From: Octopus vulgaris
Taxonomy: Eukaryota
Length of the DNA stretch: 64,000 bases
Direction: 5' to 3'
Assembly: GCA_951406725.2 (NCBI GenBank)
Contig: OX597815.1
Coordinates: 143,840,001-143,904,000, forward strand
Shown here: positions 5,584-56,728 of the stretch, one piece after another
Layout of the letters: each line of letters starts with the position of its first letter
Position numbering within the stretch: position 1 is the first letter of the stretch
Notes under the pieces: model-generated
Seen by the model: only the letters and a program-made list of their open reading frames with translations
Told to the model about the DNA's origin: nothing
The model's database searches: none
Made by a program: the position numbers and the translations under genes

Positions 5584-5782
5584 TTTGAGTAGTTGAATGA
5601 ATTATCTTATTAAGGATAATTCGAATTAACCGATACCTGGGTAGCAAATTCACATTGCTTTTCCTGATGAGAATGCGTCATAATGTACTCCTTATTCCTT
5701 CGCAATTAGGAATATGCAGCCTTCGAAACATATGTCGAAAATAAAGGAATTTTGTTAATTCGTCGTTCAGCTCCATTCTTTC
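5584..5782 (+). mobile_element. Short hammerhead-bearing insert in (TA)n, same family as 23262-23862
   Basis: 5' part matches 23262-23333 and 3' part matches 23723-23852; (TA)n on both sides. Confidence 0.8.
5659..5741 (+). ncRNA. Type I hammerhead ribozyme motif
   Basis: TTTTC / CTGATGA (5664-5670) / imperfect long helix II GAAT..CTTC / GAAA (5725-5728) / CATATG / TC / GAAAA. Predicted GUC cleavage after 5736. Confidence 0.85.
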
Positions 5783-6177
5783 ATATATATATATATATAT
5801 ATATATATATATATATATATATATATATATATATATATATATATATATATATATATATATATATACACATATATATATATATATACACATATATATATAT
5901 ATATACACATACATACATACATACATACATACATACATACATACATACATACATACATACATACATGCACACAGACTCACATAAACACGCACATATACTC
6001 ACTTAGATATGTATAGTTCTTACATATAAATGAACATATACACAGAACTGTATAAATGCAAACACTCGTGCCTATTTAAATATAGAAATTGAAATATACA
6101 TCCACACACTAGCACAGATATGGATACATATATATGCATACGTACATACATACCAGAATGTAGACATATATCTCCTG

Positions 6178-6725
6178 TTTCCCATCACTTACCATCCCTC
6201 CACCCTACCCCTCCAACACACCATTCTCCGGGCCTTCCAGCAACTCCAGTCCGGCCCCGCCACCTCGCACATATTCCTCAACCAACCCCTTCCCTGCTTC
6301 AAACGAGCCCACAAACTGCGTGGCCTCCTGGTCCATAGTTTCTTCCCTCACTCCACTTCTCAACCTCGCTCGTTCCCCTGCTCCCACCCACGCTGCCGCA
6401 TTTGTCCTTATCTCTCCGATACCACCATTCTCACAGGCACCCATCATCGTCCCCATCATATCACCGACTCCTTTACCTGCACTTCTAGCAATGTCATTTA
6501 CTGCATCTCCTGCTCTTTCTGCCCTTTTCTGTATATCGGTCAAACGGGATGCTGCTCGGTTGACCGGTTTGCGGAACACCTCCGAGACATCAGACTCGGC
6601 AATGACACCCCGGTCTCGCACCATTTCCGCTCTACTGGTTATTCACTTCAACACCTGTTGTCTGTGTTCGGATTGTCTTTGTACAGGGGTCATCCAGACT
6701 TCCGCCTTCGCCATGAACAGACAGG
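6178..6725 (+). mobile_element. Penelope-like element fragment: linker plus GIY-YIG endonuclease, open frame without ATG (absent from the ORF track)
   Basis: Frame from 6178: FPITYHP..FKRAHKLRGLLVHS..PCSHPRCRICPY..FTCTSSNVIYCISCSFCPFLYIGQTG..RFAEHLRDI..PVSHHF..EQ. Confidence 0.92.
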
Positions 6726-6747
6726 AATGTTATATATGAGAAGGTAA

Positions 6748-7120
6748 AAAGTATTTTTACAAATATCAGAATGCTTGAATATTGTCTTATACATTGCCTA
6801 TTACTGAGGTAAGATCAAATCATGGTTAACCAAGGTAGGGAACTATTTATTGATATTGATCCAGGTTATAAAGTATATTAGTGTAGGTTTAATGATTAAG
6901 TGTAAGTTTATGCATAGTTAGCCTATTGGAAAGATTTAAGGTGCGAGCATCATTGAGTAGAAAGTATTTTTACAAATAACAGACTATTTGACTATGGCCG
7001 AATAATTATTTATTGCTAAGGTTTGGACAAATTATGGTTAACAAAGGTAGGAAATTATTCAATTGCATTGATCTATATAATAAATTTTATTAGTGTAGAT
7101 TCAATAATTAAATATAAGGT
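6748..7120. repeat. Diverged direct repeat, ~212-bp period, downstream of the minus-strand Penelope-like element
   Basis: aaagtatttttacaaata..atggttaac(c/a)aaggtagg..attagtgtag occurs at ~6748 and ~6961. Confidence 0.75.
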
Positions 7121-7149
7121 AAGGTATAGTTATCATAGAGGAATGATTT

Positions 7150-8280
7150 GTATATAGGGTGTTGGCACCGGACAATCTATTCATCACGCTGATTAATAAT
7201 ATTCGATTTAATTTTATTAATATGGAACACCTCAGACACTCAGAGCCCACACCAGCCACCGCAACCTTTATATGGTTGTACATTACTTACAATAGACAAT
7301 GTAATTTTAAATTCAATATTATTGTTAGTGAGAGAATGTACAAATTTAGCTTGAGATATACTATTAGCTTTTTCTTTATGCCTTGATGTAGATCTGAGAT
7401 TATTCCAACGAAGACTGGATGAGGAAGAGGACGCACCAATATAAACATGTTCTTTACCAAGAGTAGTGATTTTCCCTAAGGCACTGGCTATTAATGGTAC
7501 ATAGTGATTTATTACTAGGTTGGCCTGATTATTAATAGGAATGAGAGAGAGAGAGAGAGAGAGAGAGAGAAAGGCAATGCTACTGATTATTGACAATATA
7601 GTTAATGAAGCTCTCTGTACATTAAATACAGTAAGGTTTAACACATGTAATGTAGGGGGTTAGATAAAGAAACAGAGATAAGAAAATTGAAGAGTAAAAC
7701 ACACGCACAAAGAAAAGGATATGAAGGAATATTACATATGAGTTAAATTAATGCTTAAAATAAAACCAAGTATAGAAAATAATATAATAGGTATTATTAT
7801 CCAAGCTACTCTAACAAAGTTTCGTTCATATGTTTTCAGCTGTATGTTCAATGAATTAACAAAATTAGAGAAAGAAACAAGAACAACAGCAACAATAATG
7901 ATAACTTCTATTAGAATAAACCACCTCAAATCAATCACAGTATATTATATTTATCACGAATATTGGGAAATGGAGGAGTACTATAGACAGAGAACTATAA
8001 TATAGCTATAATATTGCATGTCCCCTGTAAGATTACTAAAATATCTAGTTGAGAATACGTGGCAACTAATAAAATAAAAAAAAAGGATACACAAACATGA
8101 GCAAAACAAAAAAAAATCCGTTCTTCGTCTTCAAAGAATCTAGTGAATATAGGAACTAAAGTTTTGGTCAATGGTGATGAGAATGAAGAAACTACAATAG
8201 GAATTACTGAAAAGCTAAAATCTAAGATAAAAATGGGACTTAGTCCGAACGTGGCTAACATCAGAAAAAAAATGAAAGAA
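7150..8280 (-). mobile_element. Decayed AT-rich Penelope-like element (RT thumb, linker and GIY-YIG)
   Basis: ORF 7240-7644 reads VYIGASSS..RWNNLRSTSRHKEKANS..KFVHSL..NNIEFKITLSIVSNVQPYKG..WCGL, matching the YIG..R.NNH..PY..C.LC endonuclease pattern. Confidence 0.75.
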
Positions 8281-54277: not shown

Positions 54278-54299
54278 TAACGAATGCTTTCTGTCATTT

Positions 54300-55200
54300 C
54301 ATTATCGTATCATCTGTGATGAAATCTTGTATTGCACTCTCACCAAAAAAACCGTACTGCAATTAAACTTGAAAGAATGTGAAGTAAAGCTGTAAAAGTG
54401 AAAAAAAGACATTTTTGTTCCATAAAGCTAATCGATTTTGCCTCACAGGTTGTACTCTTGCTTCCAGACAAACAGTTTTACCTTTACAGCTTATCAATTT
54501 TTTATAGAATTTGTTTTTGAGATTATCTCCTGTTCTCATTTGGGGTTGGTTCCAGTCGCCACCAAGAAACTGTTCTTCTTTTAATGGAAGTAGAGATTTA
54601 TCTTGTATTAATTTTATATTGGAATTTATTGTTCAGATACTGGTCATTCTGTTCTATTCCTCTTAGCTTGTTTTCGTTTCGTTTATACAAAATACCTAGG
54701 CCATAAATGAGCTCTACTCTTTTTTGTATTTCCAAGTATCGCGTTCTGCTGGAGTCAACGTTAGAAAACTGTTGTGCTGAAGGCACCTATTGAGGAAGAA
54801 ACACTATAGCAAGCCATCTCTGATCTTCAGACAAACAGAACGTCTTTTCTTAAAGACATGTCAAATTTTTAGGGAATTTTTGGTTCTTGAAAATATCTCT
54901 CCTTCTTATGTAGAGTTGGTCTCAATTGCCAGCAGGTGATTGATCTACCTTCCCTGGAAGTGGGAATAATTTCAATAAATTAAGAATTTATCTTGTATGG
55001 AATTTAATATTTTCTTATTTCTTATATTCGCAGAAATACCTGTCAGTGGTCTTTTAGAGTAATTCTCCTTTGCTCACTTTTGTTGGGGTTCGATTCTCTG
55101 TAACCGCCTGCAGGAAACATTTTTCCGTCTTCTATGGGTATTTACCTAATTTCCAAGGCAGTTTTCACAGCTATCTCCCGTTCGAAATTTACTTTATTTT
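54300..55200 (-). mobile_element. Probable decayed R4/Dong-like N-terminal region
   Basis: Basic, KLR..LNNKFQ-type segment and a WQ.R motif, similar in style to 1200-1500. Confidence 0.35.
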
Positions 55201-55505
55201 CTGTAACATAAGATATATATATATATATATATATATATATATATATATATATATATATATATATATTTATATATATTTATATATGTGTGTGTGTGTGCGC
55301 GCGCACGCACGCGTGTATGTATGTATCTTGTATGATGTATGTATGCATGTGTGTGTGTGTGTATATATATATATATACACACACATACATATACATATAT
55401 TTACATATATCTATAATACATACACATACGCACGCGCACACATACACTTACACAGGCATCGTGATGCAAACAGGGAAATAGAACTCAAAATTTAAGTATA
55501 TATGT

Positions 55506-56505
55506 ATATTGGATTGACCAAAAGTTTGTTTGGTTTTTAAGCAAGAATAGGGCGTAAGTTTTAAATACAGCGTGATTTATTCAATCATTCATAAAATAAC
55601 CGTTTCTTTCCAATATCTTCTGCCATTTTGTGAGCAGATCCATTATTCCCTGCTCAAAAAATTTCCTTTCTTTACTAGCGAAAACTCTTTCACGTGAATT
55701 GCTACATCCCCCCTCAGAACTGAAGGTCAATCCATTATATGAATTTTGAAGAGACCAAACTAGGTGGATATTTGAAAATGCAAGGTCAGACGAATATGGA
55801 GGGTGCAGGAAAACGTTCCTTTCCAATCCCACCAAATTAAAAACATAACTTAACTTTGCCTGAAGTCCTGATCATTTACGCTTCAAATTGTTACAGATAA
55901 TCCATCTTTCGTTCCCCTTTAACCATTCTCTTCAAAAAGGGATCGTTTTTTTCATGGTTCTACAACGAATCGCAGATGAAAAATCGTTGTGCGAGATTAG
56001 CCCATTCAATGGGACCCCAACATCCAGCCTGCTAACGTAACCAATTTGATGCAGATGACTTTTCATCTCTAGTCTTGATTATTTGGAGAATGTCTACGAT
56101 TATCCTGGTCGTATAATGGGAATTAGTGTCAAGTACCTCTTTCATTTTGTTGCTGTTAATCTCAGTTGGCCGGCCAGAGCGAGGATAGAAGGAAAATCTT
56201 GAAAAATCACTTCTGGTACACACTTTCCTTAATAGCACCCTACCCATATGCCTTCCTGCAGATTTTCGTCGCTTTCTTGCTTCTTTAAAATAAAAAATCA
56301 TAAGGTATCGCTTATATTCGTTTTGGTTATCTATTTTCAGCGTGATCACAAGCGCACAAAGTACAATGTCTCGTCGCAAATTCGAATCGAACTACGTTGT
56401 AGTCTCAAGTATCAAACGAGTGTGGAGGCGCAAGAGGCAGATTGAATGCTTGAAGAATAGTATCGACAGAAAAAAATTCGAACGGACTTCTTGGCAATCC
56501 CAAAA
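55506..56505 (-). mobile_element. Decayed mariner element
   Basis: HPPYSSDLA (YSPDLAP), RSGRP, LDVxVP (WVPHEL-like); imperfect TIRs at 55506-55540 and 56470-56505. Confidence 0.88.
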
Positions 56506-56633
56506 TTTTATATTAATGATAATCGGCAGAAGTTACTGAGTGACTCAAAACCCCAGAGTTTCTTGCAATGGCACTTACCAAACACACACAAAGATATATA
56601 TATCCGCTGCATTGGCGGATAAAATTTCATTAT

Positions 56634-56728
56634 TTGTGTATTAAGGCTACCATTGGTTTCATGCTAAGAAAAAATATTTAAATATTTTAGTATCTTAACA
56701 TGAAACCAACGGTAGCCTTAGTACACAA
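56634..56728. repeat. Inverted repeat with 36-bp arms built from a hammerhead-like 3' half
   Basis: ttgtgtattaaggctaccattggtttcatgctaaga / tcttaacatgaaaccaacggtagccttagtacacaa; right arm contains GAAA-CC-AAC-GG-TA. Confidence 0.85.

Follow-up and report, generated by a model that had tools for sequence, protein, structure and literature searches.

In a stretch of 64,000 nucleotides from Octopus vulgaris (GenBank assembly GCA_951406725.2, contig OX597815.1, positions 143,840,001 to 143,904,000; hereafter the window) and among its relatives elsewhere in the same genome, we examined a set of hammerhead ribozyme motifs that a first-pass annotation had picked out. These motifs are probably best explained as the 3′ ends of Penelope-like elements (PLEs), and of their derivatives without an open reading frame (ORF), which carry two predicted kinds of hammerhead: a type I form that would need two copies (families A to E) and a rearranged form that would fold alone and likely cuts in vivo (families F and G). 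As for the second kind, we lean slightly towards the view that the hammerhead of cephalopod Naiads, and of several ORF-less riders present at high copy number, represents a seventh topology that the six permutations of Eckert et al. (2023, PMC10085705) do not include. In this non-circular order of the cleavage-site (S), GAAA (G) and CUGANGA (C) blocks, the backbone would be open between A9 and G10.1, the helix II strand would lie at the 5′ end and the monomer would cleave in vivo. Some Naiads would then possess a ribozyme after all, and the first non-circularly permuted hammerhead would have been found in an animal genome.

A predicted rearranged hammerhead in a high-copy family

One pattern for family F returned 4,969 matches in the genome and none when reversed, with 2,000–3,250 candidates for each of the subfamilies F1 to F4 (F3 copies being 97–99% identical). 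Throughout these relatives, GAAA lies upstream of CUGANGA, and N7 is free. The blocks follow the order S-G-C. In this arrangement, helix III joins the sequence 5′ of an upstream U-H site to the bases that follow GAA, and helix I joins the sequence 3′ of that site to those that precede CUGANGA. Both helices were 96% paired over 38 copies, three pairs of helix III and four of helix I having changed on both sides. With an upstream strand added for helix II, a four-helix model was 93% paired over 39 copies and showed two-sided changes at 13 of its 24 pairs; slid controls reached 13–43%. Core positions were kept almost without exception, U16 and a non-G base at position 17 occurring in all 39 copies, CUGANGA in 36 and GAAA in 37, with all four bases found at N7. 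Family F, and family G likewise, shows what defines the Type-SGC order, namely blocks S, G and C, helices I and III that covary across subfamilies, and the full core. A helix between the far sides of stems I and II is a candidate in both families (82% paired, without two-sided change).

Reading the downstream CUGANGA of F as part of a type I motif was ruled out, as it has no helix I partner 3′ of it. By eye, the strands that follow A9 and precede G10.1 might also form a fourth helix, but it had no constant register and is not claimed here. Rfam returned nothing near threshold for an F3 copy.

The F units are closed, ORF-less and 630–860 nt long, and 21 of the 100 motifs listed lay in 10 head-to-tail arrays. 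Fragments of Neptune or Hydra elements beside single F copies (loci L282, L327, L347, L350, L352, L357 and L399) were inconsistent in place or strand and were taken as neighbours. Besides, a GTAAGT near the unit start in F and G (e.g. L303, L363, L433, L268) resembles a 5′ splice site; PLEs are known to retain introns.

Several observations count against this fold or against its link to Naiads. Our covariation figures tally copies rather than events, and about four F and three G subfamilies carry the signal; because relatedness inflates copy-based counts, we placed the weight on helices that differ between subfamilies. The F copy in the window has lost helix I. Neither F nor G could be linked to an ORF, and scanning the collected loci for Naiad protein motifs gave no match. 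Naiads are defined by an ORF with an N-terminal GIY-YIG domain and a C-terminal reverse transcriptase (RT), and F and G are closed units without one, which makes them possible riders rather than Naiads themselves.

Two candidate partners for helix II

Both an upstream and a downstream strand can pair as helix II. The upstream partner was 90% paired in F and present in all four subfamilies; in G it was 96% paired and Watson-Crick, with two-sided changes at three of five pairs. Judged from these modelled pairings, the upstream strand is the better partner, and it would split the CUGANGA block from G10.1. We accordingly give a slight preference to a split-block topology for the rearranged motif.

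The competing account, which we regard as a minority possibility of some weight, is that F and G are plain Type-SGC hammerheads (Eckert et al. 2023) whose helix II forms with the strand directly 3′ of CUGANGA, the upstream strand being an off-switch that holds the GAAA-side strand. This pairing does exist: it reaches 83% in F, where the partner strand lies 5 nt past A9, and 93% in G, largely through G-U pairs, with some covariation (in G, both partners covary). In F1 it is equal or better in two of three cases, and an extra base after A9 is usual among the PLE hammerheads described in published tables. These points speak against a split block, and yet the plain order would imply an insert after CUGANGA of 1 nt in G and of 5 nt in F, and no insert above 2 nt at that position was known to Eckert et al. 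in the sections compared (PMC10085705). In F, an unbroken block C, with its helix II strand at most 2 nt from CUGANGA, was not found, F1 to F3 having the 5-nt gap and F4 no pairing at all. The downstream pairing is disrupted in every one of the 11 F4 copies, in the single-copy family G4 and in one G1 copy, and is impossible in the Naiads of Octopus bimaculoides and O. vulgaris as read by eye, whereas the upstream pairing is Watson-Crick and 3–9 kcal/mol stronger in F2, F2b, F3 and F4. Copy by copy in G, the downstream helix is possible, with G-U pairs, in 11 of 15 and the upstream one in 12 of 15, the latter with far more Watson-Crick pairs.

A start-site footprint at the predicted cut

In subfamily F2, 102 copies start exactly after H17, the predicted cut, versus 16 at −4 and 38 at +6 (p = 6e-8 against +6). 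Nineteen of 20 checked were true truncations, the remaining one being a 2-nt deletion. In F3, two of six partial upstream copies start at the cut or 1 nt away. Such a peak would be the trace expected from reverse transcription of cut RNA, and on the strength of these genomic patterns the rearranged motif is probably a real self-cleaving hammerhead.

It might instead be a conserved pseudoknot that does not cut, that serves protein recognition, RNA stability or RT loading and contains hammerhead-like words, with the start peak marking an RT stop. A backbone in which A9 is not joined to G10.1 has no precedent in the hammerhead literature compared here, and type I PLE hammerheads, which according to the published sections compared cleave poorly in vitro, leave no footprint in this genome. 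Yet the catalytic positions are all kept while every helix and N7 vary, across unrelated families; the peak sits on the exact phosphodiester that had been predicted beforehand by analogy; and chance fits are rare, the descriptor of the split fold giving no match in 10 shuffles or in reversed tiles. A non-cutting pseudoknot is therefore improbable in our view.

Some caution about the cleavage signal comes from the controls, which cover two positions only, with slightly different anchors and with microhomology that varies by site. The type I families lack a comparable peak: none of 30 tail-picked A copies starts at the cut, and E gave 3 and 0 matches there versus 8 at +7 (one further E control was spoiled by insertion variants and is uninformative). 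Since the ends of A run through the cut site and none starts there, the template of this family was uncut or re-ligated.

The same layout in family G and in cephalopod Naiads

A family-blind scan for the S-G-C order recovered G1 to G3, as well as G4, in the rearranged layout including an additional helix, P. G1 to G3 form one distant superfamily, of which 15 copies were aligned, and G is unrelated to F. The S block of G3 is shifted by two columns in this alignment, from which helix II alone was therefore scored; helices I and III were anchored by script, with one of the 15 rows misparsed. In metagenome contigs the F pattern gave 22 matches, none of which fits the split descriptor, and these were put down to chance.

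Naiads are said to lack canonical hammerheads, although eight of them, including two from cephalopods (Naiad_Ovul and Naiad_Esco), are flagged as 'HHR_half_core' in the sections compared of Craig et al. (2021, PMC8557442). There, this half core is a CUGANGA in the 3′ untranslated region (UTR) with a GAAA 'on either side' farther off, and no fold is given. Reading the published 3′ ends of Naiad_Obim and Naiad_Ovul by eye, we found an upstream strand that forms 6 bp with the bases preceding GAAA, starting from G10.1-C11.1, a P helix of 5 bp, a helix III of 5 bp and a helix I of 6 bp followed by CUGAUGA, with no downstream partner. Both ends thus fit a complete rearranged hammerhead, unlike the published account. 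Not all Naiads agree: in Naiad_Esco, helices I, III and P fit and helix II does so only poorly, and by eye the layout was not evident in seven other Naiad ends (Adux, Skow-1, Dst-3 and the one preceding it, Lpol and the one preceding it, and Ptep). As no Naiad ORF was found among the loci collected from the O. vulgaris genome, a tie between F or G and Naiads is suggested there by the shared layout.

Type I hammerheads belong to Penelope-like elements

Family A is a full Hydra-clade PLE, as judged from its sequence. It carries an RT and a GIY-YIG-type nuclease upstream of the hammerhead, and in 15 of 19 loci chosen by their nuclease an intact motif lies about 600 nt past the stop codon (nearer in one). 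In loci L136 and L137, an intact 903-aa RT and nuclease ORF stands between two direct repeats, each with a hammerhead, which is the Hydra-clade plan of a single ORF, with RT followed by a C-terminal GIY-YIG domain, between hammerhead-bearing pseudo-long terminal repeats (pseudo-LTRs). Pfam did not detect the nuclease piece, whose GIY-YIG motif was recognised by direct reading. Further marks of the clade are DKT, the lack of CCHH, the nuclease motifs CxxC and CxH and the (TA)n target; A departs from it in having RWL instead of RWK, an Asn-rich linker instead of CxCX5C and a length of about 3.3 kb (generally <3 kb). Twenty-two of the 47 matches listed are identical across 173 nt. Between subfamilies, the changes keep the structure (10.1-11.1 going from G-C to G-U, one helix II pair altered on both sides, and ACAUAUGU to ACAUGUGU), and the older variant present in the window also sits after a 71%-identical nuclease in L151. 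Nearly all of the 30 tail-picked copies finish in (TA)n at about +60 or +228.

Of note, the inverted pairs of A (L193–L222) mostly join one +60 end with one +228 end, and E likewise has two end sites. The window also holds a Hydra-like nuclease fragment with 31% identity to family A (7138–7473, −) and a Neptune-like GIY-YIG fragment (6034–6747, +), 54% identical to that of L001 and separate from the adjoining family A insert.

Families B and C are, on sequence grounds, tied to Hydra-type nucleases, one of which lies collinear upstream in two of 20 B loci and one of 20 C loci, with fragments in five more of the latter; the B nuclease carries CxCX5C. D and E are ORF-less retrozyme-like units. 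An exact 35-nt D sequence occurs 5,468 times genome-wide (11 matches in the sampled tiles described below), with near-fixed ends, 15 head-to-tail junctions and arrays of two to four units, and a D-like module terminates a Neptune-like element (so named by its motifs). The 3′ UTR of this element in L001 and L113 is rich in CA, runs to about 2.7 kb and has a D-like hammerhead at its end. E forms a closed unit of 492 nt, present at unit length or longer in L033, L040, L042/L043 and L052 among 20 loci. ORF-less one-hammerhead units in head-to-tail copies, as in non-LTR retrozymes, were found in D, E, F and G; no autonomous partner came to light for the last three.

All five type I families have CUGANGA, GAAA, U16 and H17 in C-G-S order (with U4C in D), and helices I, II and III can form in family copies, those of B, C and one D in the window being damaged. 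At its base, helix II of B contains U-U pairs, a feature also published for the axolotl hammerhead. Helix III would cost +2.4 to +4.8 kcal/mol as a hairpin versus −7 to −11 kcal/mol as a duplex (D: no hairpin, −1.7).

That A to E form a separate class unrelated to described PLEs could be argued from their absence from the published tables compared, from the 8-nt perfect palindromes and from a helix II of up to 57 nt, the Hydra motifs tabulated by Craig et al. (PMC8557442) having mostly a loop of 1–3 nt. We consider this very improbable, given that A lies physically within an RT and GIY-YIG element bearing Hydra diagnostic motifs, that B, C and D are linked to Hydra- or Neptune-type nucleases, and that the bases which B, C and E have inserted after A9 and ahead of G12 agree with the Hydra table in the same source.

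Motifs of the window and their density

The host assembly comprises 2.8 Gb in 227 contigs; the window has 36% G+C and is 18% tandem repeat. Coordinates of the hammerhead-bearing parts are given in Table 1.

Table 1. Hammerhead-bearing inserts and related repeats in the window (positions counted from its first letter)
Feature	Position	Strand	Parts and remarks
Family A, older subfamily	5588..5777	+	Inverted tail stub 5588-5648; type I hammerhead 5659-5741; (TA)n tracts on both sides
Family B, 3′ end	10166..10385	+	Hammerhead 10289-10348; helix II shortened and closing pair of helix I lost in this copy
Inverted duplication	21016..21297	.	Type I-like 3′ half (GAA ACCGGU A) at 21147; candidate, family unverified
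Family C, 3′ end, decayed	21516..21640	-	Hammerhead 21571-21618
Family D unit, ~205 nt	22006..22212	+	Minimal hammerhead 22080-22114, U4C
Family A, young subfamily	23263..23861	.	Inverted pair of pseudo-LTR ends; hammerheads 23468-23553 (-) and 23723-23808 (+); longer tail on left arm
Family G, 5′-truncated	32349..32642	-	Rearranged layout; GAAA block 32627-32642, CUGAAGA block 32599-32612; missed by the first-pass annotation
Second family D unit	41501..41709	+	Hammerhead 41577-41611, one mismatch in helix I
Family E	49227..49960	+	Inverted stub; upstream partial hammerhead 49356-49395; body; complete hammerhead 49750-49807; tail
Family F (subfamily F1), 3′ end	50032..50305	+	Rearranged hammerhead; upstream helix II strand 50088-50096, cleavage block 50104-50117 (mutated here)
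Same F1 copy, downstream blocks	50122-50135; 50151-50163	+	GAAA (the orphan half of the first-pass annotation); CUGAGGA
Inverted duplication	56634..56728	.	Type I-like 3′ half at 56702 plus mirror; candidate, family unverified

All eight type I cores that had been proposed were recovered (5664+, 10295+, 21614−, 22084+, 23547−, 23729+, 41581+ and 49756+), and their grouping into five unrelated families held, with the helix III palindromes ACATATGT, ACGATCGT, ACAGCTGT, ACGT and ATCCGGAT. A strict scan requiring at least 4 bp in helix I and at least 3 bp in helix II passed six of the eight, in clear excess over dinucleotide shuffles (mean 0.02, maximum 1; 100 shuffles at each of two block sizes). 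Point mutations account for the failure of C (21614) and one D (41581), and B (10295) lacks the 2.1-1.1 pair; relatives of the damaged copies keep their helices intact. The E copy runs for more than one turn of its unit, with deletions. The U4C change is the majority state of D, being present in 88 of 100 exact copies among the matches listed. Association with (TA)n was likewise borne out, (TA)4 lying within 250 nt downstream in 11 of 12 A, 16 of 20 B, 12 of 20 C, 18 of 20 D and 14 of 20 E copies, against a background rate of 24%. Of the three orphan 3′ halves described, those at 21147 and 56702, each in the middle of an inverted duplication, do look type I, with no full copy found of the family behind either; the one at 50128 is instead the GAAA block of the rearranged hammerhead, with CUGAGGA downstream at 50157.

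The proposed density of one motif per 8 kb does not extend to the genome. A sample at round coordinates, comprising 58 tiles of 10 kb each (580 kb), gave 22 strict motifs, seven of them within one tandem array, i.e. one per 26 kb; the tile scan gave five in the window, which is thus about two-fold rich, and none in 20 shuffles or in reversed tiles. Extrapolation yields about 106,000 type I motifs genome-wide (67,000–161,000 if motifs are treated as independent). A diverse, high-copy and microsatellite-associated class of ribozyme-bearing retroelements is indeed present, with 1,200–2,300 first-look candidates for each of the five families and A as the pseudo-LTR of an RT and GIY-YIG element. 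The class can hardly be called hidden, as Hydra-clade PLEs with hammerheads and (TA)n targets, including an octopus member, already appear in the sections compared of PMC8557442. The best 150 of 337 Rfam rows for the window contained no hammerhead, solely microsatellite-driven microRNA matches, and a first scan demanding a hairpin helix III found no motif in the window because helix III is palindromic.

Ten or more additional type I families, with palindromes of their own (ACAATTGT, ATCATGAT, ACACGTGT, AGAGCTCT, ACGCGT, ACCAATTGGT), were seen in tiles and flanks (e.g. L004, L060, L074, L091, L123, and also L132, L154, L157, L183 and L188), and hammerhead families are often inserted into or beside one another at TA-rich ends (L002, L009, L330, L288). 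A classical non-LTR retrozyme lies at L153:2300-4560 (G000:C1, 20.002–20.005 Mb), with 359-nt tandem units and seven canonical type I hammerheads, five forward and two inverted. Apart from these, the window contains RT fragments of the long interspersed nuclear element type (Pfam RVT_1; 10518–11678, + and 525–914, −) and a Pif1 helicase fragment (PF21530; 57143–57778, +) of probable Helitron origin.

Proposed mechanism and significance

Target-primed reverse transcription is the likely route by which the inserts entered (TA)n tracts. In A to E, the 4–8 nt palindrome, unstable as a hairpin, would pair with itself, so that cleavage would need two copies of the motif, supplied by two pseudo-LTRs or a tandem unit. 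Reverse transcription, as the ends of A show and as may hold for B to E, starts at an internal TA-rich site 60–260 nt past the ribozyme and invariably passes the cut site, on an uncut or re-ligated template. The rearranged motif of F, G, G4 and the cephalopod Naiads has the order 5′-[10.x strand]-[P]-[16-17-1]-[11-GAAA-15]-[P′]-[2-CUGANGA]-3′, and its helices I, II, III and P are predicted to form a multi-pseudoknot with a helix III of 5–6 bp, for which reason it should need no dimer. It would cut multimeric transcripts of the closed units (630–910 nt), and PLE proteins, those of Naiads being the likeliest, may then mobilise these units in trans.

If this proves correct, the range of ways to wire a hammerhead core would grow, non-circular permutations, so far confined to anonymous metatranscriptomes, would be placed in an animal genome, and an explanation would be at hand for the octopus Naiad 'half cores' that standard descriptors miss. 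It also offers a direct test of the role of PLE hammerheads, as a single genome would hold a dimer-type form without a DNA cleavage footprint and a monomer-type form with one. Through the eight type I motifs, a class already known, whose motifs number an estimated 10^5 in the genome, gains young and testable families.

Comparison with known systems

For A to E, the type I class, the (TA)n targets and an octopus member are already known, and the families themselves add young members. Hydra-clade PLEs, including Hydra-1_Obim from Octopus bimaculoides, have (TA)n targets and hammerheads with a self-complementary helix III of 3–4 bp (Craig et al. 2021, PMC8557442). In the features compared, A resembles them in its C-terminal GIY-YIG domain without CCHH, DKT, (TA)n, a hammerhead near the 3′ end, a tail on one arm and inverted 5′ copies; it differs from Hydra-1_Obim as a longer (~3.3 kb) and very young family with the Asn-rich linker in place of CxCX5C and another hammerhead sequence. 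The PLE pseudo-LTR hammerheads of Cervera and de la Pena (2014, PMC4209133), from which dimer cleavage as applied here is taken, share with A to E the type I core, the palindromic helix III and the extra base after A9, as well as many families per genome, mostly single truncated copies and inverted pairs 100–700 bp apart. D is the textbook minimal motif of that work save for U4C, whereas A, B, C and E have 8-nt palindromes and A and B a very long helix II; the rearranged order is not mentioned in the sections compared.

Non-LTR retrozymes, proposed to be non-autonomous PLE derivatives, are ORF-less closed units with one hammerhead, found as monomers or short tandems (Cervera and de la Pena 2020, PMC7229834; Li, Clavereau and Pollet 2026, bioRxiv 10.64898/2026.07.22.740005). 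D, E, F and G fit this description as far as these sources were compared, but published retrozymes carry type I motifs and F and G, with their S-G-C order, do not. The main text of the preprint mentions neither octopus, cephalopod nor pseudoknot, and no earlier description of the split-block layout was found in the literature, subscription papers and that preprint's supplements aside.

The closest relative is the Type-SGC order, which was named and validated in vitro by Eckert et al. (2023, PMC10085705) and which, in the sections compared, was found only in metatranscriptomes and in no genome of a known organism. F and G share with it the S-G-C order, the short linker between helices I and II and the same catalytic positions. 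Type-SGC assumes an unbroken block C, whereas F and G have the extra P helix and a better helix II strand at the 5′ end, and they occur in an animal genome, in thousands of copies and within retroelements.

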